This document shows, one piece after another, positions 10,491-62,200 of a DNA stretch of 64,000 nt; position 1 is the stretch's first letter; every line of letters begins with the position of its first letter. The notes beneath the pieces are model-generated. The model did no database searches. It was not told the origin of the DNA and worked only from the letters and a program-made list of their open reading frames with translations. The stretch is taken from contig JBBABB010000001.1 of the NCBI GenBank assembly GCA_041657885.1, forward strand, positions 129,094 to 193,093, written 5' to 3'. The position numbers were made by a program, and so were the translations under genes. Source of the DNA: Minisyncoccota bacterium. Its GTDB lineage: Bacteria; Patescibacteriota; Minisyncoccia; Phycocordibacterales; UBA9973.

Positions 10491-10515
10491 CAGATAGGGG
10501 CTTAGCCCCTATCTG
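10491..10515. repeat. REP-like 25-bp perfect palindrome cagataggggcttagcccctatctg (copy 1, upstream of RAYT)
   Basis: Perfect inverted repeat. Copies at 10731..10755 and 11236..11260. Confidence 0.8.
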
Positions 10516-10544
10516 GGGAATTTAACTTGTAGTATAATAAAAAT

Positions 10545-11249: not shown

Positions 11250-11260
11250 GCCCCTATCTG
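11236..11260. repeat. REP palindrome copy 3, overlapping the RAYT stop codon (TAA in the palindrome loop)
   Basis: Same 25-mer; the stop codon 11247..11249 lies in its centre. Confidence 0.8.
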
Positions 11261-11310
11261 AGAGATTGGGCGTTTTTGAGAGTTTTACGCTTTGATGTTT
11301 ATAAATTATT

Positions 11311-17857: not shown

Positions 17858-18307
17858 ATGTTTAAAAAAACACTACCATTTATTTTAGGATTTATAATAA
17901 TTTTTACCCCCCCTCTTTTAGTTTTAGGGGCAGGTTTAGTTCCTGATTGTAATATGGGGGAGATGATAACTGTACCTAGCCATACAGAAGTGATAGACGG
18001 TAAAACTGTAACTATTCCAGAAAATTATCAATACAAAAATCCATGTAATTTTAATGCACTAATGGAATTAGTTAATACAGTTATTAATTTTATACTTGTC
18101 AAACTCGCGACTCCATTATTTGCTCTTATCCTTGTCTATGTTGGCTGGCTATATCTTAGCGATATGGGCAGTGCAACAAATGTTACAAAATCCAAAACAA
18201 TTTTAAAAAATGCTTTCATTGGTTTTGTTATTGCTCTCGCAGCTTGGCTTATTGTAAAAACCATTCTTCTTAGTTTGGGTTTTACCGGCCCGATGTTTTT
18301 GAGCTAG
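17858..18307 (+). CDS. Small secreted two-TM protein, member 1 of pilin-like (VirB2/TrbC-like) paralog array
   Basis: Signal peptide; two C-terminal hydrophobic helices separated by a short polar loop; shared architecture with the five following ORFs. Confidence 0.4.
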   Translation: MFKKTLPFILGFIIIFTPPLLVLGAGLVPDCNMGEMITVPSHTEVIDGKTVTIPENYQYKNPCNFNALMELVNTVINFILVKLATPLFALILVYVGWLYLSDMGSATNVTKSKTILKNAFIGFVIALAAWLIVKTILLSLGFTGPMFLS

Positions 18308-18438
18308 TTATTATTAATTAATCCCGTACGAAGCGTTTATGGCTAATAACGGGAAGTAAAAAATAAAGTTATATTTATGTCGAGTTTATTAAGTTAATGT
18401 AAGTAACGGAAATGTAAACATTTCCTGCTTCGTACGGG

Positions 18439-18915
18439 ATGAAAATTTTCAAAACAAAAAAATATAGTATCCTCTCAAATATTTTAAAATATAGTTTTGT
18501 TGTTATGTTTATGTTTATGTTGATTATCCCCGTTCTATTTGTAAATGCAGAAGTGTGTGCTGATGGAAGTGTTAAAACTGTTTGTCCAGACGGAGGTGGT
18601 GCAAATACTCCTGATGGAGGGGGCACAAATATCACAACCAAAATAGATAACCCCCTAGGACCCAAAATAACAGATATTCCTTCTTTTATACAAGAAGTTA
18701 TAGTCATAGTTCTTACTGTTGGAATTCCAATTATTGCTCTTGCTATTATTTATACAGGATTTCTTTTTGTGGAAGCTCAAGGTAATCCTGAAAAGCTTAC
18801 TAAGGCCAAAAAAGCGCTTCTGTACACTCTGATAGGTGGAGCATTATTGCTTGGAGCGTTCGTTATAGCGAATGCTATTGGTAAAACGGTCGATGAGATT
18901 AAAAGTACAACATAA
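18439..18915 (+). CDS. Pilin-like two-TM paralog 2 (Cys/Gly-rich extracellular segment CADGSVKTVCPDGGGANTPDGGG)
   Basis: Same architecture as the other array members. Confidence 0.4.
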   Translation: MKIFKTKKYSILSNILKYSFVVMFMFMLIIPVLFVNAEVCADGSVKTVCPDGGGANTPDGGGTNITTKIDNPLGPKITDIPSFIQEVIVIVLTVGIPIIALAIIYTGFLFVEAQGNPEKLTKAKKALLYTLIGGALLLGAFVIANAIGKTVDEIKSTT

Positions 18916-18923
18916 TATATTAT

Positions 18924-19277
18924 ATGAATACAATGATTGCTTATGCAGTAGAAAATACAACTGTTGGAGGTGTCGCTTGTGATGTTGCAATAACAAATTT
19001 AACTACTCTTATTAATTTCTTTACTTGCACAATAATGAAAGCAATAGTTCCTTTGCTCGTTTCTTTGGCTATGGCTGGGTTTGTTTATGGGGTCATAAAA
19101 TTTTTTATGAATCCCGATAATGAAGAAAAACGCAAGAATGGGAAAAGTTTTATGCTTTGGGGGGTAGTTTCTTTATTTGTAATAGTAAGTATTTGGGGAT
19201 TGGTCGGGATACTCTCTAATACGTTTTTAAAGGGGGATATTCCAGTTATGCCTTCGCTTCCAGAACCAATAAGGTAG
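18924..19277 (+). CDS. Pilin-like two-TM paralog 3
   Basis: GFVYGVIKFFMNPDNEEKRKNGKSFMLWGVV motif shared with paralog 5. Confidence 0.4.
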   Translation: MNTMIAYAVENTTVGGVACDVAITNLTTLINFFTCTIMKAIVPLLVSLAMAGFVYGVIKFFMNPDNEEKRKNGKSFMLWGVVSLFVIVSIWGLVGILSNTFLKGDIPVMPSLPEPIR

Positions 19278-19408
19278 CGTATTGTATTTTTTATTGATAT
19301 AATGTAATAAGTACGTTTGTGTTTAGTTTTATTTCCTACGGTCGGTGGGATTTAAAAAAATTATTATTAGGTCGTTAATTTATAAAGTTTATATTTAATT
19401 TTTAATTT

Positions 19409-19753
19409 ATGAAAAAAATTATTTCGTTAGGTTTAGTTTTAGGTGCCTTTCCGTTTTTTGTTTTTGCGACAGGAGATGTTGGCAGTATTATATTTCAGAT
19501 AACTGGTTACATTAATTTGATTGTTCCAGTATTAATCACAGTAGCTATTGGTTATTTTATTTGGGGAGTGATTCAATTTATCTCTTCTTCTGAGGAGGAA
19601 GCAAAAAAGAATGGCCGTACAAAGATTATCAATGGACTTATTGGACTCTTTGTTATTGTTGCTTTCTGGGGAATAATTGCTGTTGTTAGAAATACTTTTG
19701 GAATAACTGATAGTAGTGGTACGGCAGGTTCTGACGTAATAATACTTCCATAA
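19409..19753 (+). CDS. Pilin-like two-TM paralog 4
   Basis: GYFIWGVIQFISSSEEEAKKNGRTKIINGLIG. Confidence 0.4.
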   Translation: MKKIISLGLVLGAFPFFVFATGDVGSIIFQITGYINLIVPVLITVAIGYFIWGVIQFISSSEEEAKKNGRTKIINGLIGLFVIVAFWGIIAVVRNTFGITDSSGTAGSDVIILP

Positions 19754-19785
19754 TAATACGTTAGAATTTCTCAATATTAAAATAT

Positions 19786-20109
19786 ATGATTTTCCAAATT
19801 ATACCAGTTGCAGAGGCAAGTATAACAACATTAATGAGAAGTATTGATAAAGTAATTATTAACCCTCTTATTGTTTTGTTGTTTGCTCTTGCTGTGGCGT
19901 TTTTCATTTATGGACTTGCAGAATATTTACTATCTCCAGATAATGAAGAAATACGTAAAACAAGCAAGTCCCGTATGCTTTGGGGAATAATAGGAATGTT
20001 CATAATGATTGCAGTTTTTGGAATTATGGGTTTGATTCTTAACACTTTGGGTGAGAAAAATATACAAGTTTATCCTAGTGGGGATTATGAAATTGGGAAT
20101 CTTAAGTAG
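19786..20109 (+). CDS. Pilin-like two-TM paralog 5
   Basis: FFIYGLAEYLLSPDNEEIRKTSKSRMLWGIIG. Confidence 0.4.
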   Translation: MIFQIIPVAEASITTLMRSIDKVIINPLIVLLFALAVAFFIYGLAEYLLSPDNEEIRKTSKSRMLWGIIGMFIMIAVFGIMGLILNTLGEKNIQVYPSGDYEIGNLK

Positions 20110-25967: not shown

Positions 25968-25989
25968 ATAATAAAATCAAAACGAAAAC

Positions 25990-26084
25990 AAATAGTCTTA
26001 TCAAAGGGGCTTTGGAGCGCGTCGGCGCGAGAACTGAGCAAATTTTTAGCAAAAAATTTGAGTACCCTTTGAGAAGAGCTATTT
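25990..26084. repeat. MITE-like repeat family A, copy 2 (inverted orientation)
   Basis: Reverse complement matches the core of 8470..8587; sits between convergent genes. Confidence 0.7.
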
Positions 26085-27087: not shown

Positions 27088-27184
27088 AAAATAGCTCTTC
27101 TCAAAGGGTACGCAAATTTTTTACTAAAAATTTGCTCGGTTCTCGCTCCGTCGAGCTCCAAAGCCCCTTTGATAAGACTATTTT
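27088..27184. repeat. MITE-like repeat family A, copy 3
   Basis: aaaatagctcttctcaaagggtac...ctcgctccgtcgagctccaaagcccctttgataagactatttt. Confidence 0.7.
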
Positions 27185-27196
27185 ATTTCCTCCCTC

Positions 27197-31697: not shown

Positions 31698-33671
31698 TTA
31701 GAGTAAATCCTCCGGGTCAACATTTATAGAAAAAGATAGAGGAAGGTGAGATAATGTCTCGTAGAGAACTTCATCTATTTTTTTCTCCCCATTTTCTATT
31801 AAAGGCCAAAAATCAGGATTAACTTTGATAACTGTGTTTGTAATATACTGACCTTTTATTTTACTGATGAATGCACTAAATATTTGCGGTTCATAATTAC
31901 TTAATAATTTTTCAATAAAATTTCTGGCCTTTTCTGTATCAGGGGCTGTTCCCTCAAAAGTAATTTTTATTAGTCGTTTAAAAGGAGGATAGCCAAAATC
32001 ACATCTCTCTTTCAAGTCCTCTCGACAAAGTGGAAGGACATTGCCACTGATTATATATTGTAGAATTTTATTTTCTGGCATGCGTGTCTGAATTACGAGA
32101 TTATTGGTAGTTACATAATGTAGCTTTTCTATAATGTGTAATATTTTTTGTGTAATGTTGAAACTGGGTATTGAAAAAAGACCATCAAGTGATATCACTG
32201 CGCTTGAGTGAATTTCATCTTGTAGATAAGAGAATACCATTTCAGTTCCGATTAATATACTTCCTGGAGTTTTGCTAAATTGTGTTATGGCGTTTTTTGC
32301 TTCTTTTGGAGTCGGTGTTGCTTCTTTGTCTATTTGGATAACTTTTACCTTGGGATATAAGCTTTTTATCTCCTCATAAACTTTGTCTGTTCCAATTCCA
32401 AGTGGAGTTAAATTCCAACTTGAACATTTTGGGCAACTAATTTCTGTTTTTTCTTTACGACCACATTTATTGCACATAAAAATTCTTGGGGTTGTAGATT
32501 TAGTTGCAGTTATTTGCTTCGTGCCATATAAGACAATGGGAGTAGAGCAAGAAGGGCATAAAAGAGTATTACCACAATCATTACAAACAGTTATAGGAGC
32601 TAATCCTTTACGAACAGAAAATAAAAAAACTGATTTATTTTTTTTAATCGCCACATCAATCATTTTTTTTGTTGTATTAGAAATTGTTGTAAAAACTTTT
32701 TTACCTTTTTCATTCACTTCTTCTTTCATATCCACAACAATTTGACGTTCTGTTTGAGGAAGACGATATAAGGGAGATAATATTTCTCCAAGTTCTCCTT
32801 GTTCGTGTCTATATAATGTCTCTGGACGAAGTAGTGTGTCTCCCAAAATTAGTTTTGTTTTTTGAATTGAAGATAAAACTTCAGCAAAACTTCTTATATC
32901 TATGTAAGGTCTTGCGATTTGTTTGTATGTGTCAGAGCTTTCATGTTCTAAAATAACTGTTTTTATATCAGAGCGAGGTATAGACATAAATATACCAGTA
33001 CCAATAATGAGAATGGGGTGAGTTTCACTTATCGCAGAATTATACATATTTACCAGTTTCTTTTTTGGCATATCAGAGTGAAAAGTAAAAACGTACTGTT
33101 CTATTCCCTTGGCAAGTTCTTTATTGAAATGGTCTATATCATAATGGTTTGGAACACACATAAAGACGGATTCTTTCTTGGCAAATGCTTCTCTGATAAG
33201 AGTGCGATAAAAAGCTAAACGATCAGGTTGAACTGCTTGGAAAATTAATTTTTCATGCTTCGCCTCGCCGGAGCCTTGTGCAGAGGCGGGTTTCGCCTCG
33301 CTTTCATTTTTACCTTCGTTTTTTTTGAGCTTACTTATATTCTCAATAAAAACTGATGGCAAGAGAGATTTAATAACAGAACCAGTATTACTAACTGTAT
33401 ATTTTTTAATTTTTTGACAAGCGATGAAAAAACTTTTATTGAAAGGTGAATCACCTTTTATTTTAATTATTTTTTTTAATTGATAGTCGGCATTTTTGAT
33501 GTCAGATTTTATATCTCTAGCTTCCTCCATATTAATAACAATTGCATCAAAAACTCTAGATCTAACCGGAATAGAAACAATACTTCCAATAGGGATATCA
33601 TTTGCGGAGAAATAAGATAAATATTCCTTTTGAGCTCCTTTTTGTATTGGTATAACAGTAGCGATATACAT
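31698..33671 (-). CDS. priA: Primosomal protein N' (PriA helicase)
   Basis: Cys4 zinc-binding region CNDCGNTLLCPSCS...CNKCGRKE..CPKCSS, helicase motifs. Confidence 0.85.
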   Translation of the reverse strand: MYIATVIPIQKGAQKEYLSYFSANDIPIGSIVSIPVRSRVFDAIVINMEEARDIKSDIKNADYQLKKIIKIKGDSPFNKSFFIACQKIKKYTVSNTGSVIKSLLPSVFIENISKLKKNEGKNESEAKPASAQGSGEAKHEKLIFQAVQPDRLAFYRTLIREAFAKKESVFMCVPNHYDIDHFNKELAKGIEQYVFTFHSDMPKKKLVNMYNSAISETHPILIIGTGIFMSIPRSDIKTVILEHESSDTYKQIARPYIDIRSFAEVLSSIQKTKLILGDTLLRPETLYRHEQGELGEILSPLYRLPQTERQIVVDMKEEVNEKGKKVFTTISNTTKKMIDVAIKKNKSVFLFSVRKGLAPITVCNDCGNTLLCPSCSTPIVLYGTKQITATKSTTPRIFMCNKCGRKEKTEISCPKCSSWNLTPLGIGTDKVYEEIKSLYPKVKVIQIDKEATPTPKEAKNAITQFSKTPGSILIGTEMVFSYLQDEIHSSAVISLDGLFSIPSFNITQKILHIIEKLHYVTTNNLVIQTRMPENKILQYIISGNVLPLCREDLKERCDFGYPPFKRLIKITFEGTAPDTEKARNFIEKLLSNYEPQIFSAFISKIKGQYITNTVIKVNPDFWPLIENGEKKIDEVLYETLSHLPLSFSINVDPEDLL

Positions 33672-37230: not shown

Positions 37231-37347
37231 AATTACAACACAAATTAAAATTTTAGTAGTCGGACTACTAAAATTTATTATTTTACATTTTAAAAAATAT
37301 ATGATATACTACTAATACATTTGAACGCCTTTTGGCGATTTTATTTT

Positions 37348-39219
37348 ATGGAAATTAGAAATATAGCAATAATCGCCCACGTGGACCATGGAAAAACCAC
37401 TTTGACTGACCAGATGATGAAGCAATGCGGAATGGTGAAAGAAGGGGTTACCATGGATTCAAACGCTCTTGAACTTGAGCGTGGTATTACTATATATTCC
37501 AAAAACACTTCAGTAATTTATAAAGGAAAAAAAATAAATATTGTAGATACTCCAGGCCACGCGGACTTCGGTTCTGAAGTTGAGCGTGTTCTTCGCGCGA
37601 TTGATTCTGTGCTTCTACTTGTAGATGCGCAAGAAGGTCCAATGCCTCAAACTCGCTTTGTTTTGAAAAAGTCCCTTGAGTTAGGACTTAAACCGATTGT
37701 TGTAATAAATAAAATAGATAAGCCAGCCTCAAACCCAGCTCGCGTTCATGATGAGATACTTGAACTTTTCTTGGAGCTTGGAGCTACTCAAGAACAAATT
37801 GATTTCAAATATTTATACGCTATAAGTCGCCAAGGAATAGCAAAATTAAAACTTGAAGATGAATCCAAAGATTTAACTCCTTTATTTGATCTAATACTTT
37901 CTGAAGTTAAAGAAGCATCTGTCGATAAAAACGCTCCTTTTCGGGCGCAAGTTTTTAATCTTGGCTATGATAACTTTTTGGGGCGTTTGGCTATCGTTCG
38001 CGCTTATGCTGGGTCTATTAAAACTAGCTCTCAAATTATAGTAAAAGATACTGTTGGTAATTCTCGTAATGCTCGCATTTCTAAAATATTTACTTTCCAG
38101 GGGATAGATAGAAAAGAAGTAAGCGTATTAAATACTGGAGATATCGCTATTATCGCTGGAATTCCCGATGTCTATATTGGAGAAACAATTTGTGATGATA
38201 TAAATACGCAAGCTCTTCCCTCTATTGATATAGATGAACCAACAATTTCCTTAAATTTTTTAGTAAATGATTCTCCTTTTGCAGGTCGTGAAGGTAAGTA
38301 TGTGACGGGTAGACAAATAAGAGAGCGTCTCGAAAAAGAACTTGAAATGAACGTTGGTCTTCGAATCAACTTTGATGTTCCAGATGAAGAATTAGGAAAA
38401 GAAGCCCGCCCGAACGACGCAGTCGGGCAGGGATTTCTTGTCTACGGACGTGGTGAATTACATATTGCAGTACTACTAGAAAATATGCGTCGTGAAGGAT
38501 ATGAGCTCCAAGTTTCTCAGCCCCACGTAATTATAAAACCTGCCCGCCCTCACGAAAGTTCGGGAGCAGGCGGGGAAGAAAAAGTAACTATGTTGGAGCC
38601 GTATGAAGAAGCAACCATTGATGTCAGGAGTGAATTTTCTGGTTCAGTTATAGAAAAATTAACTGCGCGCCGAGGAATTATAACAAATATGCATGAGAAA
38701 GAAGGAATTGTTCGAATGTTGATAGAGATACCCACTCGAGGATTGCTCGGATATCGTGGACAATTTATTGTAGATACTAAAGGTGAAGGAATACTTGCTT
38801 CAAGATTTATTGGATTTAAAAATTATGCAGGAGAAATAAAAAAGCGAGATGTGGGGTCTATGACTTCAATGATTAATGGTAAAGTTGTTGCATTCTCACT
38901 TTGGACTCTACAAGAAAGAGGAACTCTGTATGTAGAGCATGGAGATGAAGTATATGAAGGAATGGTTATTGGAAATGTTATAAAAGGAGATGAATTGACG
39001 GTTAATCCAACAAAAGGGAAACAACTTTCCAATATGCGTTCTTCAGGCACTGATGAAGCAATCAATGTTAAGCCACCATATAAGTTGTCTATTGAGCGAG
39101 GACTTGAGGTTATGGCTGAAGATGAATATCTTGAAATTACACCCCAAAATACTCGCTTACGCAAGAAGCTTCTAACGGAACAAGACCGATCAAAATCAAA
39201 AACAGCTAAAAATAAGTGA
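37348..39219 (+). CDS. typA: Translational GTPase TypA/BipA, carrying a 12-aa in-frame insertion ([12 protein letters not shown])
   Basis: [35 protein letters not shown]. Insertion at 38539..38576 relative to E. coli/B. subtilis BipA. Confidence 0.9.
38539..38576. repeat. GC-rich palindromic element (family E) inserted in frame in typA
   Basis: cctgcccgccctcacgaaagttcgggagcaggcgggga; identical 38-mer at 43646..43683 in mnmA. Confidence 0.8.
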
Positions 39220-39322
39220 TACATTTATAAGGTGAATAATAAGGATTTAAATTAGTTGACTTTATTTGATAGTAATGATATTATGGCAAATAGATAATTA
39301 GTTAGGTTAAATTTTAATTCAA

Positions 39323-40354
39323 ATGGCTAATACAATCACATTTAAACCAAAACAAGTTACTAAAAGAATGCTTTCAGGTCTATCACCACGCGCTCATGAG
39401 GTGATTATTAATCGTTTCGGTATTACCGATAATGCAGAACGTAAAACACTAGAAGCAATAGGTCAGAAATATGGCATTACTCGTGAGCGTGTTCGTCAGA
39501 TAGAAAATACAGCTCTGGTTTTTATTCGTAAATCAGAATTTTTCAAGAACGAGAAAGAAGTTTTTGAAGAATTAAAGAAATTAGTGCATACCTTAGGAGC
39601 TATTATTTCGGAACAAGATTTACTCAATCATTTATCTAAAGATAAATTAACTCAGAATCATATAAATTTATTTCTAACTCTAGGGAATGATTTTACTAAA
39701 CACAAAGAAGATGAGAATTTTAAAACTCGTTGGAGTGTTGATGCTGACATAGCAGAACAGATTCACAAGTCATTGAAAAATATTTATGAAGGTCTTTCGG
39801 ATGATGAGTTAATTTCTGAAGGAGAACTTATCGCTCGATTTCTTGAAGAAGTCAAAGATTTATCTGAACAATATAAAAATGAAGAAATCGCTCGCCGCTG
39901 GCTTTCAATGTCCAAGAAGATTAGTAAGAATCCATTAGGAGAATGGGGAAAGTCCACATCTTCTAGTATCAAGACCCGTGGAGTAAAAGATTATGCATTT
40001 TTGATGATGCGTAAACATGGTAGCCCAATGCACTTCAGAGAAGTAGCAAAAGCCGTAGCTAGTACTTTTAATAAGAAATGTCACGTAGCGACTTGTCATA
40101 ATGAACTTATAAAAGACCCTAGGTTTGTCCTTGTAGGAAGAGGAATTTATGCTTTATCGGAATGGGGGTATAAGACAGGAGTAGTTCGCGACGTTATCAA
40201 AGAACTCATAAAGAAAAATGGTCCTATGTTAAAAAATGATATTATTGACCAGGTTATGAAAGAAAGATATTTAAAGAAAAATACCATTTTGGTTAATCTA
40301 CAGAATTCAAAATATTTCAAGAAAAATAAGACTGGACAATACACAATAGTTTAA
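39323..40354 (+). CDS. Sigma-70 region-4-like HTH domain protein with large C-terminal domain
   Basis: LSPRAHEVIINRFGITDNAERKTLEAIGQKYGITRERVRQIENTAL resembles sigma-70 region 4. Confidence 0.45.
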   Translation: MANTITFKPKQVTKRMLSGLSPRAHEVIINRFGITDNAERKTLEAIGQKYGITRERVRQIENTALVFIRKSEFFKNEKEVFEELKKLVHTLGAIISEQDLLNHLSKDKLTQNHINLFLTLGNDFTKHKEDENFKTRWSVDADIAEQIHKSLKNIYEGLSDDELISEGELIARFLEEVKDLSEQYKNEEIARRWLSMSKKISKNPLGEWGKSTSSSIKTRGVKDYAFLMMRKHGSPMHFREVAKAVASTFNKKCHVATCHNELIKDPRFVLVGRGIYALSEWGYKTGVVRDVIKELIKKNGPMLKNDIIDQVMKERYLKKNTILVNLQNSKYFKKNKTGQYTIV

Positions 40355-40361
40355 AAGAAGG

Positions 40362-40398
40362 AAAACCTCTCCGATTATGGTCGGAGAGGTTTTCTTTT
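40362..40398 (+). terminator. Rho-independent terminator (13-bp stem aaaacctctccga...tcggagaggtttt + T-run)
   Basis: Perfect 13-bp stem, 6-nt loop. Confidence 0.75.
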
Positions 40399-40517
40399 GT
40401 AGATATGGTATAATATGTCATATGCAGAGAGGTGTAATTGCAAATATTATTATAGTAATAATTGGTATTATTTTTATAGCCATATTAATCGGATTTTTTA
40501 ATAAACCATAATATTAT

Positions 40518-41816
40518 ATGATAGATAATTTTTTTGCTACACATAATTTTAATTTAATACAAATAATAATAGCTGGCATTGGTTATTTAATGCCACTTCC
40601 TTTGGCATTTATTGCATTCAAATTATGGCATCACTACAAGCAAGAGCGTTTTATAATGAATATAAAATGGGTTTTACTTGAAATACAAGTACCACGCGAT
40701 GTCATAAAAACCCCCGCAACCATGGAACTTATTTTTTCTAATGCTTTTTATCACAAAAGTATAAAGGGGTTTTGGGAAGAATATATGATAGGTGCTCCAT
40801 GGTTATGGTTCTCACTTGAAATTGTTTCTATAGACGGAAGAGTCCATTTTTTTGTTCGAACTCCAACTCGTATACGTGACTTAGTAGAAACACAAATATA
40901 TGCACAATATCCACAAGCCAAAGTGGTGGAGACAGAAGATTATGTTTGGAACATACCTCAATATACAAAAAATGGTGGTTGGAATATGTGGGGTTGTGAA
41001 TTTACCAAGAAGAAAGATGATATTATGCCAATAAGAACATATAAACAGATAGAAGAGATGAAAAGTGGAACCAAAGAAGAATTTAAAGTTGACCCTATTA
41101 CTCCGACAATAGAATATCTCGGCTCACTTCCAAAGGGGCAACAAGTTTGGATTCAGATAGTTATAAGGCAAAATATTAAAAAGTACCATAGTAAGATTAC
41201 AGGTAAACATATTAGTTTTGAAGAGCATGCTGAAGAGTATATGAAAAAGCTTCTTGAACCATATACAAAAATTGGTAAAGGGGGTGGAGTTGGAGGAATA
41301 GATTCTATGGAAATACGTCCACCAGGTTTTCTTGACCTTTCTATCAAACAAATGACTTCAAATTTAGGTCAAATTCATTTTGATTGTGGAATACGTCTAG
41401 TAACATTAGCAGATAAAAAATTATTTTCTGATGAACAATTTAATAGTTTGAGACGTTCCTCTCGTCTTGTCTTTCGTCAATTTGCTCAGCCGTACTCCAA
41501 TGAATTAGACCGTATCAGCTCCACCCAGTTTGATGCTCCTTGGTCTGACCCGACAGGACTTGCATTAACTAAACTCAAAAAACGCATGCTTGATTTTTAT
41601 CGTTTGAGAACATTTTTCCATCCGCCTATTCAATATGCTTTTAAATACCCAGCTGTATTTAGTGTGTTTTTTCCTTCAGGTAAACCTCAGATTTTTGTGC
41701 TTTCCAATGAGGAGTTAGCCTCTCTTTATCATTTCCCAGGTATGGTTTCAGAGACTCCAAGCTTCAAGAGAATAGAGTCAAAGATTGCAAAACCACCTTC
41801 AAACTTGCCTGTATAA
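40518..41816 (+). CDS. Hypothetical membrane protein
   Basis: ORF with N-terminal TM helices; no recognised motif. Confidence 0.3.
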   Translation: MIDNFFATHNFNLIQIIIAGIGYLMPLPLAFIAFKLWHHYKQERFIMNIKWVLLEIQVPRDVIKTPATMELIFSNAFYHKSIKGFWEEYMIGAPWLWFSLEIVSIDGRVHFFVRTPTRIRDLVETQIYAQYPQAKVVETEDYVWNIPQYTKNGGWNMWGCEFTKKKDDIMPIRTYKQIEEMKSGTKEEFKVDPITPTIEYLGSLPKGQQVWIQIVIRQNIKKYHSKITGKHISFEEHAEEYMKKLLEPYTKIGKGGGVGGIDSMEIRPPGFLDLSIKQMTSNLGQIHFDCGIRLVTLADKKLFSDEQFNSLRRSSRLVFRQFAQPYSNELDRISSTQFDAPWSDPTGLALTKLKKRMLDFYRLRTFFHPPIQYAFKYPAVFSVFFPSGKPQIFVLSNEELASLYHFPGMVSETPSFKRIESKIAKPPSNLPV

Positions 41817-41817
41817 T

Positions 41818-42684
41818 ATGCGTATATCAAATATATTCTTAATTTTTTGTTTTATTACCTTATTTTCATTTTTCTTTTTATCTACTCCTTCGGGAAATAA
41901 GGATATAATTTTTCATGTAGCATCTCGGCAATCAATAAATTCTATTACTCAAGAATTAGAAAATAAAAATGTTATTCGAAATGATTTTACTCTAAAAGTT
42001 TTTATTCAATTATTGAAGTCAGGAAAGGGTGTCATCGCGGGCGATTATTTGATTAAGAAAAATTCTCCAGTGTGGATTGTTGCTTGGCAGATAGGTAGAG
42101 GACATCATAAAATGAAACCGATTAGGATAACTATTAGAGAAGGTCTGACAAATGAAGAAATCGCTGTTTTACTTGCAGGCAAATTAACTGGTTTTCGACA
42201 AGATTTATTTTTATCTGGTGTAGAAAACAAACAGGGATATCTATTTCCAGATACATATTTCTTTTTTCCATTAGATACAGCTGACGAAATCATAGAACAA
42301 TTATCAAATAATTTTAAAAAAAGAATTGAAAATCTTTCTCCCTCTATAAATTCAAGTGGTAAAAATTTATCTGAGATTATAACTATGGCTTCAATACTTG
42401 AAGGTGAAGCCGGTGGAGAAGAAGATATTGCAATTATTTCTAGTATTTTATGGAAAAGAATTTCTATGGGAATGTCATTGCAAGTAGATACAGATAAATC
42501 TACTTATACCACAAATGGATTGCCCACTAAACCGCTGAATAATCCCGGATTATTATCTATAAATGCAGCGATAAATCCTATAAATTCTTCTTACTTGTAT
42601 TATCTTCATGATAAAAATGGTAAAGTACATTATGCTGTGACTTTTGAAGAACATAAGCGTAATATAGCTAATTATCTTAAATAA
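41818..42684 (+). CDS. mltG: Endolytic murein transglycosylase MltG (YceG-like)
   Basis: LFPDTYFF, ITMASILEGEAGGEEDIAIISSILWKR, GLPTKPLNNPG. Confidence 0.75.
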   Translation: MRISNIFLIFCFITLFSFFFLSTPSGNKDIIFHVASRQSINSITQELENKNVIRNDFTLKVFIQLLKSGKGVIAGDYLIKKNSPVWIVAWQIGRGHHKMKPIRITIREGLTNEEIAVLLAGKLTGFRQDLFLSGVENKQGYLFPDTYFFFPLDTADEIIEQLSNNFKKRIENLSPSINSSGKNLSEIITMASILEGEAGGEEDIAIISSILWKRISMGMSLQVDTDKSTYTTNGLPTKPLNNPGLLSINAAINPINSSYLYYLHDKNGKVHYAVTFEEHKRNIANYLK

Positions 42685-42742
42685 TCCGCCTTCGCATAAA
42701 ACTACGGCAAGACAAGTCCGCCAAAATTTTTACGAAAAAGAT

Positions 42743-44083
42743 ATGGTGATTAAAAATAATAAAACAGTATTTATTGGGGTTTCCCCGAATAGAAGAGTAC
42801 TTCCTACGGGGCAGGCAGGCGGAGTTAAGCCTACTGTTTTTGTTGGTGTTTCAGGAGGTGTTGACAGTTCGGTTTCCGCGGCCCTTTTAAAAGAGGCTAC
42901 ACCAAAAAATTTTAAAAAATTTTTTGGTCGCCCGACCCCGAAGGGGTTTAGAGGATACAATGTAGTTGGGGTTTTTATTCGTACTTGGACACCGGATTTT
43001 ATAGAATGTACTTGGAAAAATGAGCGTCGTGATGCTATGCGAGTATGTGCGCATCTTAATATTCCTTTTTTAGAATGTGATGCTGAAAAAGAATATAAAA
43101 AAAGTGTGGTAGATTATATGATTGAAGAATATAAAAAAGGTAATACTCCAAACCCCGATGTAATGTGTAATCGAGAAGTTAAATTTGGAGTGTTTTGGAA
43201 ATTTGCACAATCTCACGGGGCAGATTTTATTGCCACGGGGCACTATGCACGCAAATCTCCCCTCCTTGTGGAGGAGGGGGTAGGGGGTGGTGATCCAAAA
43301 GAATTACCACCTCGCCCTGCGGGCACTCCTCCTCGAAAAGGAGGAGAGGAAATGCATAAATTACTAAAAGGTATTGACTCATCCAAAGACCAAGTTTATT
43401 TTTTGTGGACTTTAACGCAGGAAGATTTGTCTCATATTTTATTTCCCATTGGACATTTAAAAAAGACAGAAGTTCGTAAACTTGCAAAGAAATATAATCT
43501 TCCAACTGCGACGAAAAAAGACAGTCAGGGTATTTGTTTTCTGGGGCTACTTGATATGAAGGATTTCTTGAGACACTATATTAAATCAGAAAAAGGGAAT
43601 GTTTTGCTTGCCCGTCACGATAGTGAATTAGGGAATGAAAAGGGACCTGCCCGCCCTCACGAAAGTTCGGGAGCAGGCGGGGAAATAATTGGAAATCATA
43701 ATGGCGCGGTATTTTTCACTCTTGGAGAAAGACATGGATTTACTCTTAATAAACATTCCGAAAATGATGAACCTTTATATGTAATATCAAAAGATATAAA
43801 AAATAACACCATTACTGTTTCCCCTAGGCCTTGCCTAGGGGAAGAAGACGAACCACATAGGACCGTCCTATGTAATAATGCAAACTGGATTTCAGGTATA
43901 CCAGAAAAAGATAAGGTGTATATAGCTCAAATTCGTTATCATGGAGAGTTTTTAGATTGTAAAGTGGTCGTCACAGGTCAGACCTGTGAAATAACTTTTG
44001 ATAAAAATGTAATTGTTGATAAAGGACAATCAATAGTTATTTATGATGGGGATATTTGCCTAGGGGGTGGTGTGGTAATTTAA
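42743..44083 (+). CDS. mnmA: tRNA-specific 2-thiouridylase MnmA with at least 5 in-frame GC-rich insertions
   Basis: VGVSGGVDSSVSA (PP-loop), NPDVMCN, TGHYAR, KDQVYFL, QGICFLG. 446 aa versus about 360 aa for orthologs. Confidence 0.8.
   Translation: MVIKNNKTVFIGVSPNRRVLPTGQAGGVKPTVFVGVSGGVDSSVSAALLKEATPKNFKKFFGRPTPKGFRGYNVVGVFIRTWTPDFIECTWKNERRDAMRVCAHLNIPFLECDAEKEYKKSVVDYMIEEYKKGNTPNPDVMCNREVKFGVFWKFAQSHGADFIATGHYARKSPLLVEEGVGGGDPKELPPRPAGTPPRKGGEEMHKLLKGIDSSKDQVYFLWTLTQEDLSHILFPIGHLKKTEVRKLAKKYNLPTATKKDSQGICFLGLLDMKDFLRHYIKSEKGNVLLARHDSELGNEKGPARPHESSGAGGEIIGNHNGAVFFTLGERHGFTLNKHSENDEPLYVISKDIKNNTITVSPRPCLGEEDEPHRTVLCNNANWISGIPEKDKVYIAQIRYHGEFLDCKVVVTGQTCEITFDKNVIVDKGQSIVIYDGDICLGGGVVI
43646..43683. 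repeat. Family E element, identical copy inserted in frame in mnmA
   Basis: The same 38-mer as in typA. Confidence 0.8.
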
Positions 44084-52852: not shown

Positions 52853-53314
52853 ATGGAAAAAAAAGCAACAAAAACAACAAAACCTGCCCGCAGTGCTTCG
52901 AGCACAGCTCGTGCAGGCGGGGAAAAGAAATATGTTAGAGCTATTGGTCGTCGTAAGACAGCTGTAGCCGTTGTTCGTCTTTATAAAGCAACAAAAAATT
53001 CATATTCTATAAATGGAAAAGATTTAACCGAATATTTTAAAACAGCTGACTTGAAAAAGATTGTAACTTCTGCATTTGAAACAGCCGTACCAGTAGGGAA
53101 ATTTGAAGTTGTTGTCACAACCAAAGGTGGTGGAATTCATTCACAAGCTGAAGCGGTTCGCCATGGTATATCCCGCGCATTAGTATTACATGATGGAGAA
53201 CTTCGTCATGTTCTTAAGAAAGCCAAAATGCTTAAACGTGACCCTCGTCAAGTTGAACGTAAAAAATTCGGGCTCAAGAAAGCAAGAAAGTCACCGCAGT
53301 GGTCTAAACGATAA
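52853..53314 (+). CDS. rpsI: 30S ribosomal protein S9 with N-terminal extension containing a family-E-like element
   Basis: YVRAIGRRKTAVAVVRL...GGGIHSQAEAVRHGISRAL...ERKK.GLKKARK..QWSKR. Extension encodes KPARSASSTARAGGEKK. Confidence 0.9.
   Translation: MEKKATKTTKPARSASSTARAGGEKKYVRAIGRRKTAVAVVRLYKATKNSYSINGKDLTEYFKTADLKKIVTSAFETAVPVGKFEVVVTTKGGGIHSQAEAVRHGISRALVLHDGELRHVLKKAKMLKRDPRQVERKKFGLKKARKSPQWSKR
52883..52923. repeat. Family E variant element (shared termini cctgcccgc ... caggcgggga, different palindromic core) in frame in rpsI 5' end
   Basis: Termini identical to the typA/mnmA element; core gtgcttcgagcac is a palindrome. Confidence 0.65.
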
Positions 53315-58366: not shown

Positions 58367-58369
58367 AAT

Positions 58370-58413
58370 CAGACAGTGCCTAAAGCGCTATGTAGCGCTT
58401 TAGGCACTGTCTG
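58370..58413 (+). terminator. Long perfect hairpin (about 19-bp stem cagacagtgcctaaagcgc...gcgctttaggcactgtctg) after dnaJ
   Basis: Perfect inverted repeat; a weak T-tract follows. Confidence 0.55.
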
Positions 58414-58500
58414 GAATTCCTTTACATATTTCACATTTTTGCTATCATTGGTAATATTATTATTTATTGCGGGCAAAACAATTTTGCTTGATATAAAGAG

Positions 58501-59889
58501 ATGAATAAAAGTTCTAAGGCTGCGAAGAAGCTCTGGAAGATTGGTTCTAAAGATTTCAACACTCAATATTTTGATTACAATAAAGAGGGCGATCTAATTA
58601 TTAAAGAAGGACATAATATTTATAACGTTCGTTATTTAGCAGAGAAATTCAGCACATCACTCGAAATTCTTATGCCTTTTGTTATTGAAGAGAGGTTAGA
58701 AGATTTCTTGGATTTAGTAACCGCCTTGTCAAAAAAAGTAGGATATAAGGGAAAATTCTTTTATCATTATCCGATGAAAGTAAACCAAAGTAAGGAAATA
58801 GTAATGGCTGTTGCTGGCGAAGGTGCTCATCTTGAAACATCTTCATACAATGAATTATGGATGGTTAAGAAAATGCTTGAACAAGAAAAATTTAATCCAA
58901 ACATTCGTATTCTTTGCTCTGGACCAAAAACTAATAATTATATAAATTTAATAGATGACCTTCAGCATAAAGGTGTTAAGATTTTCCCACTCATTGAAGG
59001 TCCAAATGAATTAAAATTTTTACAATATTCAAAATATGATGTGGGCATTCGTATAGATATACCGGTAAAAGCAAGTTCTCGTTGGAACAAAGCAGTAGAT
59101 AGGTTTGGTTTTTCCGCTAAAGAAATTTTAAGTATGGGCTCATTTAAAAATTTAAAGATTCTTCACTATCATATTGGTTCACAAATTGAGAAACTTTCAG
59201 ATGTTCTTATCCCTATTAAATACGCCCTCAATGTTTATTTCAAACTCAAAGAGAAAAATCCTTCACTTGATACACTTGACATTGGGGGTGGAATGCCGAT
59301 TCCTTACACCAGAGAAAAAATTTATCGTATAGAGAACTTAATGGAGAAAATTTTTAAACTTGTGAAGTCAGAATCAGAAAAAAAGGGAATGTCACATCCA
59401 AATTTAATATGCGAATGGGGAAGGTATATGGTAGCCCCCGCGCAAATAACAATTTATAAAGTTATTGATACAAAAAGAATAAAAAGTAAAAAAAGTCCTG
59501 CCAAGAAATGGTACGTTATAGATGGAAGTTTTATGAATGACCTTCCGGACACTTGGGCGATTGACCAAAAATGGGCTATTTCCCCAGTAAACGATAAAAG
59601 AGATGGGAATTTGAATGAAGTTTGGCTTGCAGGGTCTTCTTGTGACTCAGATGATATATATAAAGGGCTGAATGGAACAGTAACTCTCCCTGACTTTGAT
59701 ACAAATGGAGATAATGATGGAGGGTCAATGTATATTGCGGTATATGATACAGGAGCGTATCAGACATCACTCGCAGCTCAACACTGCATGCTTTCTTCCC
59801 CTATGAAAATCGTAGTAGAAAATGGTCATATTGTAGTGGCTCGTAAACACGAATCAGCTGATGAAGTTGGAAAAAATTTTGGCTGGTAG
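58501..59889 (+). CDS. PLP-dependent decarboxylase, Orn/DAP/Arg decarboxylase (fold III) family; probable arginine decarboxylase
   Basis: LDIGGGMPIPY and GSSCDSDD motifs (cf. SpeA ..CDSDG); adjacent agmatinase supports the ADC role. Confidence 0.55.
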   Translation: MNKSSKAAKKLWKIGSKDFNTQYFDYNKEGDLIIKEGHNIYNVRYLAEKFSTSLEILMPFVIEERLEDFLDLVTALSKKVGYKGKFFYHYPMKVNQSKEIVMAVAGEGAHLETSSYNELWMVKKMLEQEKFNPNIRILCSGPKTNNYINLIDDLQHKGVKIFPLIEGPNELKFLQYSKYDVGIRIDIPVKASSRWNKAVDRFGFSAKEILSMGSFKNLKILHYHIGSQIEKLSDVLIPIKYALNVYFKLKEKNPSLDTLDIGGGMPIPYTREKIYRIENLMEKIFKLVKSESEKKGMSHPNLICEWGRYMVAPAQITIYKVIDTKRIKSKKSPAKKWYVIDGSFMNDLPDTWAIDQKWAISPVNDKRDGNLNEVWLAGSSCDSDDIYKGLNGTVTLPDFDTNGDNDGGSMYIAVYDTGAYQTSLAAQHCMLSSPMKIVVENGHIVVARKHESADEVGKNFGW

Positions 59890-59895
59890 TAGAAT

Positions 59896-59972
59896 ATAAT
59901 TAATAATTAATAATTAATAATTAATAATTAATAATTAATAATTAATAATTAATAATTAATAATTAATAATTA
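59896..59972. repeat. Heptanucleotide microsatellite (ataatta)x11 in the intergenic region
   Basis: Perfect tandem 7-mer repeats. Confidence 0.9.
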
Positions 59973-59998
59973 AGAATTAAAGCGAAACAAATTATTTT

Positions 59999-61015
59999 AT
60001 GAATACAAATTTAAACACATTAGAATTTATTCTAAAAAATTATAAGAACTTCAATGCTCGCGCAACGAAAGACGCGATGATTTCATATTGGCGTCATATT
60101 GAAAAAGGAGGCAAAATGTTTTGGGCTATGGGAGGAGCCATGTCTTCAGCTCAGCTTGGGATTACTCTTGCTCCAGCAATCAGGAATGGATTAATTTCAG
60201 GAATGTCTGTGACTGGGGCTAACCTTGAGGAGTCATTGTTCCGTCTCGTTGCCCACAAGAGCTACAAAGACTTTCCTGATTATAGATATTTTACAAAAGA
60301 AGATGATACAAAGATTTTAGAAGACCGTATGCGACGTGTGACAGATACAAGTATTCCTGAAGACGAAGCATTTCGTGTTGTTGAAAAACAAATTGTTCCT
60401 ACATGGAAAAAAGCTACAGTAGATGGGACAAGAAAATTTTGGCATGAATACTTTTATGAACTTATCCAATCAATTGATAAGAGTAAACACGAAGGAAGAG
60501 CAGATGAATGTTGGTTGCTTGCTGCAGCAGAGAAAAATATTCCAATAGTGGTACCTGGTTATGAGGACTCAACATTTGGAAATATTTTTGCTTCTTATGT
60601 AAAGACCGGTGAATGTAGTGCAAATATTGCTAAATCGGGTGTTGAATACATGGTGGCATGGTACGATCAGTATCAAGATTTGTCTAAGGATAAAGGAGTT
60701 GGACTTTTTCAAATTGGTGGAGGAATTGCGGGTGATTTTCCAATTTGTGTTGTTCCTTCTATAAAATATGATTTAAAAAAAGAAGTAAAACCATGGGCTT
60801 ATTTCTGCCAGATTTCAGATTCTACAACTTCTTATGGTTCATATTCCGGAGCAACCCCAAATGAAAAAATTACTTGGGATAAGCTTACGAAAGACACTCC
60901 GATGTTCGTCATTGAATCAGATGCTACTATTGTTGCCCCACTTATACTTACGGCACTTCTTGAGTGTAAAGCAAATCCAGGTGGAGCTAATAAATTAATA
61001 GAACAAATGGGTTAG
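59999..61015 (+). CDS. Deoxyhypusine synthase-like protein (possible homospermidine synthase)
   Basis: FWAMGGAMSSAQLG...GMSVTGANLEESLF resembles the DHS family. Confidence 0.55.
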   Translation: MNTNLNTLEFILKNYKNFNARATKDAMISYWRHIEKGGKMFWAMGGAMSSAQLGITLAPAIRNGLISGMSVTGANLEESLFRLVAHKSYKDFPDYRYFTKEDDTKILEDRMRRVTDTSIPEDEAFRVVEKQIVPTWKKATVDGTRKFWHEYFYELIQSIDKSKHEGRADECWLLAAAEKNIPIVVPGYEDSTFGNIFASYVKTGECSANIAKSGVEYMVAWYDQYQDLSKDKGVGLFQIGGGIAGDFPICVVPSIKYDLKKEVKPWAYFCQISDSTTSYGSYSGATPNEKITWDKLTKDTPMFVIESDATIVAPLILTALLECKANPGGANKLIEQMG

Positions 61016-61020
61016 GTTTG

Positions 61021-61115
61021 AAATAGCTTTTCTCAGAGGGTACACCAATTTCTTGGTAGAAATTCGTTCAGTGTTCGCTCCGTCGAGCTCACAAGCCCCT
61101 CTGATAAAACTATTT
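61021..61115. repeat. MITE-like repeat family A, copy 4
   Basis: aaatagcttttctcagagggtac...gctccgtcgagctcacaagcccctctgataaaactattt. Confidence 0.7.
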
Positions 61116-61135
61116 CAGACCTAACCCTCAATACT

Positions 61136-62200
61136 ATGAAAGGTAATAAAGAAAAAAAGAAAATATTAGAAGAAAAAATTTCAAAGTTTAATCCCAGTGA
61201 TAGTGGAGCTCTTCATCATGGAATTTTTGGATTACCATTTAACCCTGAAGAATCAAGGGTTATTTTGGTTCCGGTGCCATGGGAATCCACAGCAACTTAT
61301 GGCGTTGGAACCGCCTTGGGACCAAAAGCAATTTTAGATGCATCGCAGCAAATTGATCTATATGACCCGATAAATCCCGATGGTTGGAAAGAGGGAATTG
61401 CTATGCAAGATATTCCTTCTAGTATTTTCTATAAAAATCAACAAGTTAGAGAAAAAATTTTAAAATATTTTGAAAAATATATTGAAAAAGATATAGATAA
61501 AGGATTACAAGATGAAATAAATGTAAGTTGTCTTGAGCTTAATGATTATGTTAAAGAAACCACCAGAAAATTTTTGGAAGATGATAAAATTGTCGGATTA
61601 GTTGGAGGGGACCACAGTGTAATTCTTGGATATCTGAAGGCGTTATCTAAAAAGTATAAAGATTTTGGAGTACTTCATATTGATGCCCATTGTGACTTAA
61701 GAAATGCTTATCTTGGACTTGAATATTCTCATGCCTCAATATTTTTTAATGCTTTAAAGATAAAAAATATTTCTAAATTAGTCCAAGTGGGAATTCGAGA
61801 TTTTAGTCATGCAGAAAATGATTTTATAAAGAAAGAAAAAAATAGAATATCTCTGTTCACAGATTATGAAATCAAAAAAGCAGTATTTTCAGGAGTAACT
61901 TTGAAAAAAAAGTTTGATGAAATTATTAAAAAACTTCCTAAGAATGTCTATATTTCTTTTGATGTTGATGGGTTAATGCCATATCTAAGCCCAAACACTG
62001 GCACGCCTGTCGTTGGTGGATTTACAATAGAAGAAATGGTTTTCCTATTTGAGGAAATGATAGCTTCAGGTAGAAAAATTATCGGTTTTGATTTGTGTGA
62101 AGTTGCTCCAGGAAAAGATGGCCAGTGGGACGGTAACGTCGGGGCAAGAATCTTGTATAAATTGTGTTTATTGACACTCAAAAGCCAAAAAATAAAATAA
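61136..62200 (+). CDS. speB: Agmatinase (ureohydrolase/arginase family)
   Basis: GGDHSVILGYL, LHIDAHCDL, SFDVDGLMP manganese-binding motifs. Confidence 0.75.
   Translation: MKGNKEKKKILEEKISKFNPSDSGALHHGIFGLPFNPEESRVILVPVPWESTATYGVGTALGPKAILDASQQIDLYDPINPDGWKEGIAMQDIPSSIFYKNQQVREKILKYFEKYIEKDIDKGLQDEINVSCLELNDYVKETTRKFLEDDKIVGLVGGDHSVILGYLKALSKKYKDFGVLHIDAHCDLRNAYLGLEYSHASIFFNALKIKNISKLVQVGIRDFSHAENDFIKKEKNRISLFTDYEIKKAVFSGVTLKKKFDEIIKKLPKNVYISFDVDGLMPYLSPNTGTPVVGGFTIEEMVFLFEEMIASGRKIIGFDLCEVAPGKDGQWDGNVGARILYKLCLLTLKSQKIK

Follow-up and report, generated by a model that had tools for sequence, protein, structure and literature searches.

Which kind of sequence places the same GC-rich palindrome, base for base and in frame, inside protein genes of unrelated function, and by what route does it come to be there? 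This question is raised by a 64,000-nt stretch of the forward strand of contig JBBABB010000001.1 (positions 129,094 to 193,093; NCBI GenBank assembly GCA_041657885.1; the whole stretch is hereafter called the window) from a small, AT-rich and uncultured Minisyncoccota bacterium of the Patescibacteria, which represents a bacterial chromosome with ribosomal, ftsZ and gyrA genes. A first-pass annotation, made from the sequence alone, had pointed to an identical 38-mer in typA and mnmA and to a related element in rpsI, and had likened their behaviour to that of Rickettsia palindromic elements (RPEs). The probable answer, in the light of the analysis reported here, is a family of selfish, non-autonomous, GC-rich coding palindromes with fixed termini (5'-CCTGCCCGC ... 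GCAGGCGGG-3') and a variable palindromic core. Any specific transposition chemistry can be put forward with low confidence only.

Copies of the element in typA, mnmA and rpsI

The exact 38-mer CCTGCCCGCCCTCACGAAAGTTCGGGAGCAGGCGGGGA is present in two copies on the plus strand (38539-38576 and 43646-43683), with 0 mismatches between them and 0 matches in 100 shuffles, and the repeat thus stands as first described. The inserted unit is nevertheless shorter than the repeat, namely 36 nt in both genes, as the final GA of the 38-mer is native and forms part of the next GAA codon. The first copy (CCTGCCCGC CCTCACGAAAGTTCGGGA GCAGGCGGG; 38539..38574; predicted hairpin of -18.5 kcal/mol) lies in typA/bipA (37348..39219, plus strand; 623 amino acids (aa) from the MEIRNI start; NCBI MFA5773216.1), whose homologues are named TypA and carry the Pfam domains GTP_EFTU and BipA_C, and whose product matches solved BipA with an E value of 2e-175. 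The second copy, identical to the first (43646..43681), lies in mnmA (42743..44083, plus strand), which encodes 446 aa versus about 380 aa in many relatives and holds several further GC-rich hairpin inserts. Both are exact repeats on the plus strand, and each would add 12 residues.

A scan for the termini (CCTGCCCGC-N5-35-GCAGGCGGG) finds exactly three sites in the window, where zero are expected by chance. The third is a 39-nt element with the same termini and another palindromic core (52883..52921, plus strand; predicted hairpin of -21.3 kcal/mol), situated in the N-terminal tail of rpsI (ribosomal protein S9; 52853..53314, plus strand), where the protein would read TTK-PARSASSTARAGG-EKK. 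The variant that had been placed in frame at the rpsI N-terminus is thereby upheld, with its end now set at 52921. Translation confirms that all three copies, each in an essential gene, are in frame, and each is predicted to fold into a hairpin of -18 to -21 kcal/mol. Their GC content is 69-70%, in keeping with the earlier figure of about 70%, against a background of 34% in the window rather than the 30% first given for the genome.

A divergent 27-nt member of the family (CCTGCCCGA CTGCGTCGT TCGGGCGGG; 38405..38431, minus strand; hairpin z-score of -3.7) also lies in typA, in the opposite orientation, and TypA reads ...ARPNDAVGQ... across it. It was recovered by a fuzzy termini scan with shuffles (at most 2 mismatches per arm; 0.3 matches expected) and not by a covariance model. 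Scans at the Rfam gathering threshold of the window and of 20 element-bearing loci returned tRNAs only, and no Rfam family covers the element in this set.

That these inserts represent a peptide module selected at the protein level (a useful loop), or else an assembly or chimera artefact, is barely credible. A similar peptide does appear wherever the element is present, and the filled typA allele is recorded on one contig only. However, the same GC-rich codons recur base for base in a 34% GC genome, the DNA is palindromic and the host proteins are unrelated. The mnmA copy is also found on an independent JGI contig (L170), and the S9 protein with the insert is recorded on 2 contigs, from four sources; this recurrence in independent assemblies disfavours the artefact for mnmA and rpsI. 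Further, the typA copy is in frame, within a diverged tract and away from the contig edge, and hundreds of copies are present in the assemblies of other projects.

Filled and empty alleles, and position in the proteins

Alignment with homologues indicates that all three window inserts are lineage-specific insertions. Among the window protein and its best 120 homologues, the TypA insert site VIIK|EE is occupied in 3 sequences only (the window, P0002 and P0085), and most of these homologues have 602 aa versus 623 aa in the window. The closest relative (P0001, on JGI contig L121) lacks exactly the 36 nt, and the empty allele is also present as P0362 in an ENA assembly, L121/P0001 and P0362 being independent assemblies. 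The 27-nt member corresponds to a 9-aa insertion relative to most TypA homologues and is common to P0001 and P0087. For MnmA, an element-like insert stands at the site in 5 of 120 homologues, the window protein included; at the DNA level the site is empty in L300 and L123 (AAG|GGG GAA...) and filled in four other lineages. The S9 insert is present in 3 of 121 sequences, P0241 among them and P0244 with a decayed copy, while the other 118 lack it. The earlier claim that orthologues lack the inserts is borne out by these counts.

Loop positions were taken from sequence alignment to solved BipA and MnmA. Both typA inserts coincide with alignment gaps of BipA, at the EIDGRK turn and the ET-EDA loop, and the mnmA insert falls in the turn preceding the conserved G-x-H-x-G segment of MnmA. 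An AlphaFold model of TypA, built from a 40-sequence alignment, was rejected as unusable for loop mapping (mean predicted local distance difference test score, pLDDT, of 51.7, and below 50 in the C-terminal half).

The wider family

Two scans, both demanding exact termini, extended the search to other genomes: the first covered one genome per GTDB species with the pattern ACCTGCCCGC-N-GCAGGCGGGGAA, and the second covered metagenomes for the PARPH-type subfamily. At least 120 loci were obtained from the former, mostly in Patescibacteria metagenome-assembled genomes of many candidate phyla, and at least 118 from the latter, so that copies in other genomes are plentiful. The lineages among the matches listed include Saccharibacteria, Paceibacterota, Nomura-, Moran-, Levy- and Microgenomates. 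No description of the family was found in the full-text literature, with the element sequence included as a query and with papers in subscription journals largely outside the coverage. The novelty proposed for this lineage is therefore retained in part: the family is apparently undescribed, but it is not peculiar to the lineage, being spread across Patescibacteria and used mostly in a single frame.

Matches from an IMG/VR scan (53 loci, mostly on contigs of 50-70% GC with unreliable open reading frame (ORF) calls) were not counted as family, and neither were those in GC-rich genomes (Prosthecobacter, Bifidobacterium); these matches are ambiguous, and some of them resemble ordinary coding sequence, for example a T-C-P-x-C zinc-ribbon motif. 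When the canonical 37-mer was compared by BLAST with the plasmids of PLSDB and with phages in GenBank, only partial chance matches appeared.

The element consists of one imperfect hairpin, in which the mismatches T3.G34, C7.A30 and T12.G25 are conserved. Its cores vary and yet are palindromic themselves (for example, AATGCTACGCATAGCGTT, CCTCACGATAGTTCGGGA and CGAAGCCTCGGC); among 146 elements of the matches listed, core folding exceeds that of shuffled cores, with a mean z of -1.3. Two main subfamilies are separated by a C-G/G-C swap at pair 13-24, and in the decayed typA copy of L122 a compensatory change has turned CCCGC/GCGGG into CCAGC/GCTGG, so that the stem keeps its pairing. Identical copies occur in unrelated genes and genomes: identical 37-mers recur in unrelated contexts and projects, the commonest 12 times among the matches listed. 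Copies are mostly single and not inverted pairs of the REPIN type (paired repetitive extragenic palindromic, or REP, sequences), with no more than 3 per locus of roughly 7-15 kb, and different subfamilies are found on one contig. Lengths range from 27 to 42 nt with a mode of 36 nt, and 123 of the 146 unique elements (84%; loci below 50% GC, among the matches listed) measure 27, 30, 33, 36, 39 or 42 nt.

Some non-coding copies adjoin tRNA-like fragments (L126, L214, L142, L167, L200, L209; L133, L204, L215, L237; L181). One set stands after a tRNA-Glu-like 5' half (GCCCCATCGTCTAACGGTTAG|el|GAC, where el is the element), about 300 nt from a real tRNA-Glu; in a second set the element takes the place of G in a duplicated tRNA-Leu T-loop (GGTTC|el|ATTCC); and L181 carries three tandem copies with an 80-bp period beside tRNA-Leu. 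Insertion into tRNA genes was considered and rejected, as in silico deletion of the element never gave an ARAGORN-detectable tRNA.

Reading frame and probable translation

Among the matches listed, genic copies, those within long ORFs, lie in sense frame 0 (PAR...AGG) in 47 of 59 cases in the genome set and in 67 of 103 in the metagenome set. Frame 0 has the fewest stops of all frames (6 of 125 elements, leaving 119 open), and its peptides are rich in G, A, P, R and S, with almost no Cys and a hydropathy of -0.75. The remaining five are either interrupted by stops (in as many as 38% of elements) or rich in Leu, Cys or Arg. Even the decayed copies in P0002, P0085 and P0244, which have lost the palindrome, have kept the frame. 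Taken together, these frame features fit purifying selection acting on translated inserts.

The same data bear on whether the insert might be absent from the protein, either through intron-like removal from the mRNA or through ribosome skipping as at the byp elements, GC-cluster derivatives in Magnusiomyces mitochondria. The element is a GC-rich hairpin in an AT-rich message, some of its copies lie in non-coding or tRNA-fragment contexts, and its size is near that of byp elements (27-55 nt), which are coding-region inserts as well. Byp elements differ, however, in being neither multiples of three nor translated. A removed insert would need neither a length divisible by three nor an open frame; removal and bypassing are thus disfavoured by the 84% of unique elements that are multiples of 3 nt, by a used frame that is nearly always open (stops in 6 of 125 versus up to 38% in others) and by the degenerate copies that stay in frame despite a lost palindrome. 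This explanation (bypassing is mentioned in PMC8811140) is accordingly considered extremely unlikely.

Insertion site and candidate mobiliser

Comparison of filled and empty alleles places the junctions at AAA|GAG in typA, AAG GGR|GAA in mnmA and AAA|GAA in rpsI, the last being inferred from the protein alignment and the window DNA only; on the same basis, no target duplication was found at the three sites. The A-rich insertion sites noted earlier hold for typA and rpsI but not for mnmA (...AAGGGA|). Over 110 distinct flanks among the matches listed, a purine precedes the element in about 88%, and GGGG is followed by A or G in about 95%. This flank rule (a purine before; G and then A or G after) is the same in coding and non-coding copies, and a conserved 4-5-nt target beyond R|G(A/G) was not found in the flanks. 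In coding copies, the preceding residue is Lys in 44% and the next one is Glu, Asp or Gly. In the genes of the window, strand-specific RRR|GRR falls at a sense codon boundary in 45% and AAAGAA in 58%, versus 17% at random, so that a target preference combined with selection can explain the frame bias without a frame-aware mechanism. Single-strand transposition of the IS200/IS605 type would tie orientation to the lagging-strand template; the two copies that L229 carries on opposite strands each run in the sense of their own gene, and at that locus orientation therefore follows the gene.

A specific version of the preferred explanation would treat the element as a true REP/REPIN-type sequence, moved by a REP-associated tyrosine transposase (RAYT) or Y1 HUH transposase through single-strand peel and paste, 3' of a short bottom-strand target (..TC|). 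The window does hold a Y1/IS200-like (RAYT-like) gene with HUH (HFH) and Tyr motifs (10545-11249, plus strand; Pfam PF01797, E 9e-7). Apart from this gene, the version draws support from the missing target duplication at typA, mnmA and rpsI (typical of IS200/IS605 and REP elements), from the conserved flank at one end (G A/G) and from the single imperfect hairpin with its conserved mismatches. Nevertheless, the Y1 gene matches the NCBIfam model with 27.7 bits only, where the cutoff is 80, and it is flanked on both sides (10487-10516 and 11233-11262) by a palindrome of its own, CAGATAGGGGCT(T/A)AGCCCCTATCTG. The homologues in L066, L123, L037, L222 and L171 are likewise bordered by hairpins, which differ from one homologue to the next; in L123 the gene stands at another locus, between priA and mreB, and is thus mobile. 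In all six Y1 genes of the window and about 2 Mb of fetched loci these hairpins are unrelated to CCTGCCCGC...GCAGGCGGG, and, on these six genes, the Y1 transposase appears unlikely to be the mobiliser. Moreover, the element is without the GTAG or CGTC tag of the family definition (PMC3733652) and occurs mostly as singletons and not as inverted REPIN pairs. The REP/REPIN version is accordingly held to be unlikely.

The hairpin might alternatively be kept for a role as nucleic acid, whether as a structural signal in mRNA (stability, RNase site or inter-domain ribosome pausing), as an antisense terminator or as a recombination hot spot. Such a role would agree with the dominance of the sense orientation; with the upstream A-runs, which yield a hairpin and T-run on the antisense strand and render the rpsI copy terminator-like on the minus strand; with the compensatory change that maintains the stem; with two elements lying within, or adjoining the ends of, recombination tracts; and with the standing of yeast GC clusters as recombination hot spots (PMC8811140). 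Against it, folding is equally stable for the sense and the antisense strand (Wilcoxon p = 0.48 over 146 elements), which favours a palindrome at the DNA level over a sense-RNA function, and the antisense terminator-like pattern is confined to the rpsI copy, one of three in the window. The majority of orthologues fare well in the absence of the insert, the positions show no logic and are dispersed among genes unrelated to one another, and lengths in multiples of three, together with the frame bias, point to translational constraint rather than RNA function. On this evidence a nucleic-acid role appears distinctly improbable.

Recombination and turnover at individual sites

Both typA elements lie within a recombination tract of about 280 bp (38325..38604), in which the window and L121 are 88% identical in the left part and 59% in the right 32 nt. 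The differences amount to 12% over the 214 nt left of the insert and to 13 of the 32 positions just right of it, whereas outside the tract typA is 99.8-99.9% identical (1 difference in 977 positions upstream and 1 in 610 downstream). Over 6.3 kb (window 37251-43538) the two sequences are about 99.9% identical except for this tract and two others, at 40619-41405 and 42962-43066, the last of which begins directly after a GC-rich hairpin (42925-42955). Such mosaic divergence suggests frequent short-tract recombination in the population. At least one copy of the element thus differs between near-identical strains within a recombination tract. As the typA presence/absence difference lies inside this tract, gain or loss by homologous allele replacement is indicated, and the exchange of alleles is the probable route by which the copy came or went; a fresh transposition need not be involved.

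Allele exchange is also central to the view of the element as a DNA-uptake or transformation-drive signal, in which candidate phyla radiation (CPR) cells have natural competence and a sequence favoured by the machinery for uptake or recombination spreads by allele replacement, as DNA uptake sequences and uptake signal sequences (DUS/USS) do. The 280-bp tract of homologous recombination at typA and the conservation of the sequence over a very wide host range can be counted for this view, and USS in coding regions also show frame preferences. DUS/USS occur at about 1 per kb, however, and the element at about 1 per 16-21 kb. The terminal 9-mers are never found alone in the window, 3 of 3 exact copies of each arm being inside full elements, and the copies are clean insertions, not motifs built by point mutation. 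Furthermore, allele replacement cannot yield identical copies in non-homologous genes. Although competence has been reported for Saccharibacteria (PMC10187176), an uptake signal is judged very unlikely.

The mnmA site exists in four states: the 12-residue insert of the window; PARPHDNSGAGG in L299; PARNASSIADAGG in L297 (P0163), where the core of a different subfamily occupies exactly the same site; and, in L298 (P0155), a PARPH-type element with a second, 27-nt palindrome (GCCAGCCTGCCCTACGAGAGCTGGCAG) nested in its loop. The core types at this site across lineages are of PARPHESS-, PARPHDNS- and PARNASSIAD-type. At the typA site, the window carries a pristine copy and P0002 and P0085 carry decayed ones; in all three proteins the residues downstream of the insert are VTM or PRM and not GEK. 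Several states at one site, together with common altered downstream residues, point to sites that are recurrently used, or to cores that are replaced, with filled alleles exchanged between lineages.

Other GC-rich insertions were observed in the same and neighbouring genes. Within mnmA there are at least 4 further GC-rich hairpin inserts of other families (43233-43360, 43821-43868, 42920-42960), for example CTCCCCTCCTTGTGGAGGAGGGG and CCCCTAGGCCTTGCCTAGGGG, with relatives in the unrelated CPR loci L227, L117 and L002. The N-terminus of mnmA (42766-42850) carries an insert of about 48 nt (PNRRVLPTGQAGGVKPT) that partly resembles the 3' end of the element; it is flanked by an imperfect 20-nt direct repeat (ACAGTATTTATTGGGGTTTC / ACTGTTTTTGTTGGTGTTTC), which duplicates the motif TVF(I/V)GVS, and is present in 8 of 120 MnmA homologues. 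The minus-strand gene priA contains a 24-nt insertion of 75% GC (33267-33290; PASAQGSG) relative to the L123 orthologue, and a similar sequence is found in L228.

Proposed mechanism and its weak points

Under the preferred explanation of selfish coding palindromes, a trans-acting activity would copy the element at the DNA level, probably in the form of a single-stranded hairpin; this activity could be a transposase of the HUH/Y1 type or replication-linked template switching. The element would land without target duplication, directly 5' of G(A/G) and after a purine. Purine-rich runs coding for Lys and Glu would already put 45-58% of such sites at sense codon boundaries, and purifying selection would then purge copies in the other five frames, with their additional stops or their Leu-, Cys- or Arg-rich peptides. 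The survivors would be copies translated as flexible loops at surface turns, even in essential proteins; these may later spread, be lost or be swapped from strain to strain by homologous recombination, with cores that diversify, nest and, at the same sites, supplant one another. The host would not need to benefit.

Several points weigh against this explanation. Transposition is never caught directly, and the only recent case of presence versus absence represents an exchange of alleles. A mobilising enzyme has not emerged from the analysis: the six Y1 genes are flanked by their own hairpins and not by the element. Translation of the inserts is inferred from their lengths in multiples of three and their open frames, not observed. 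Invariance of the termini is partly a matter of ascertainment, because both scans demanded exact termini; furthermore, REP-like elements are as a rule confined to a species, and for them it would be unusual to have identical termini in lineages of phylum rank. Finally, frame-0 genic copies exceed intergenic ones (67 versus about 20 in the metagenome set) beyond what a naive model of random insertion plus purging would give, and this excess may reflect some targeting, or a benefit.

A more far-reaching proposal, which is doubtful though worth stating, envisages frame-adapted coding palindromes throughout the radiation. These would consist of a 9-nt clamp (CCTGCCCGC/GCAGGCGGG) with interchangeable palindromic cores and would depend on some activity conserved in Patescibacteria; they would preferentially enter, or preferentially be converted into, sense codon boundaries of Lys/Glu-rich loops, would serve as a hot spot of recombination or gene conversion like the var1 GC cluster, and would be targeted beyond what passive purifying selection achieves. 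If this were true, a selfish element would systematically remodel the surface loops of essential proteins (translation factors, tRNA modifiers and ribosomal proteins) across much of bacterial diversity.

Relation to known repeat systems

The closest bacterial kind is that of the short intragenic REPs, such as RPE-4 and RPE-6 of Rickettsia and the GTAG REPs of Opitutus terrae, which are likewise palindromes of 20-40 bp and lie within ORFs whose proteins are known. Each insertion lengthens the protein by about 10-30 residues, some genes carry two, and a miniature-transposon nature is presumed (Di Nocera et al., 2013, PMC3733652). These families have GTAG or CGTC at one end and are mostly extragenic and species- or genus-specific (PMC3733652), whereas copies of the present family lie mostly within genes in a single frame, and their termini remain the same throughout many candidate phyla. 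What it shares with the GTAG- and CGTC-tagged REPs is a short palindromic stem-loop of 20-40 bp repeated in the genome; the tetranucleotide itself is absent from its ends (one strand: (R)CCTGCCCGC and GCAGGCGGG(GR); opposite strand: CCCGCCTGC / GCGGGCAGG).

The RPE-1 type (Ogata et al., 2000, 2002) and the coding palindromes of Wolbachia offer a second parallel, as selfish palindromes in frame in conserved essential genes of a reduced, AT-rich genome. RPEs are translated, tolerated at protein surfaces and found also in non-coding DNA and RNA genes; they are 105-146 bp long with 12-bp terminal inverted repeats, encode about 35-50 residues and are restricted to Rickettsia (PMC2229807). The present element resembles them as a palindromic repeat that sits in frame in conserved genes for proteins and that orthologues lack, but it is of 27-42 nt (9-14 residues) and unrelated sequence, belongs to none of the Rickettsia consensus families, and has a whole radiation as its host range. 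The RPE-like behaviour proposed in the first-pass annotation is therefore retained as regards in-frame, selfish-palindrome behaviour, while membership is not (36 nt versus 105-146 nt, unrelated sequence and no CGTC tag). For protein-coding palindromic insertion elsewhere, a 2024 review of MITEs (transposable elements of the miniature inverted-repeat type) uses the word "conceivable" only.

In behaviour, the closest analogue, although of a different lineage, is found in the GC clusters of yeast mitochondria (var1/rps3), which are GC-rich palindromes in an AT-rich genome with shared termini, different interiors and in-frame coding polymorphism. Such clusters are 30-80 bp long, have fast-mutating loops, merge or nest, are tied to gene conversion and recombination, and produce an in-frame insertion polymorphism in a ribosomal-protein gene (PMC4464245, PMC8811140). 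In contrast to the present family, they are organellar and mostly intergenic, with terminal AG/TAG repeats that are read as target duplications; the family described here has no flanking direct repeats, is mostly genic and shows no sequence relationship to them.

Comparison with REPIN/RAYT and IS200/IS605 systems gives a mixed picture. The hairpin as the unit, the absence of target-site duplication and the Y1 HUH gene with flanking hairpins in the window are alike, whereas the Y1 genes go with other hairpins, the elements are single and only R|G(A/G) is conserved. MITEs of the Correia, ERIC or RUP type are 70-300 bp long, often with TA duplicated at the target; the element is shorter, and no target-site duplication is seen at the three sites. 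DUS/USS are similar in being short motifs that recombination spreads and certain reading frames tolerate, but differ as 10-12-mers of point-mutation origin in single copies; nor are the exact terminal motifs over-represented, each occurring 3 times in 64 kb and always within full elements. The PARCELs of Mollicutes are about 100 nt in size and, unlike the element, form tandem repeats within particular surface-protein genes. They are described as palindromic repeat-coding DNA spread horizontally (PMC2996958).

Significance

To our knowledge, selfish palindromic DNA that codes for protein has so far been regarded as an oddity of Rickettsia, Wolbachia, a few REP-rich species and some mitochondria. 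If confirmed, the family would account for many odd insertions of 9-14 residues, GC-rich and rich in Pro, Ala, Arg and Gly, in CPR proteins, where they inflate protein lengths and disturb alignments, phylogenies and structure predictions. Filled and empty alleles would then serve as natural markers of strain-level recombination and population dynamics in uncultured bacteria, and the inserts would constitute a natural experiment on the tolerance of essential proteins to loop insertion. The family would further point to a widely conserved enzyme that handles hairpin DNA. For annotation and assembly, identical 36-38-mers in different genes matter as well, since short-read assemblies can break or be mis-joined at them.

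Other features of the window

A conserved intergenic repeat of about 75 nt (AAATTTTTTGCTAAAAATTTGCTCGGTTCTCGCGCCGTCGCGCTCCAAAGCCCCTTTGATAAGACTATTT) occurs at 8510-8585 (plus), 25985-26065 (minus) and 27112-27185 (plus), with partial copies in L202, L110 and L145; it could be a promoter or leader, or another mobile repeat. A perfect palindrome with a 21-bp stem (TCAGACAGTGCCTAAAGCGC TATG ...; -39 kcal/mol) stands directly after dnaJ at 58369-58414, with no further copy in the window or the fetched loci. Five tandem small genes at 17858-20109 each match Pfam T4SS_pilin. At 58501-62200, a cluster of Orn/Arg decarboxylase-like, deoxyhypusine-synthase-like and arginase/agmatinase-family genes gives this reduced CPR genome a pathway of polyamine or (homo)spermidine type.

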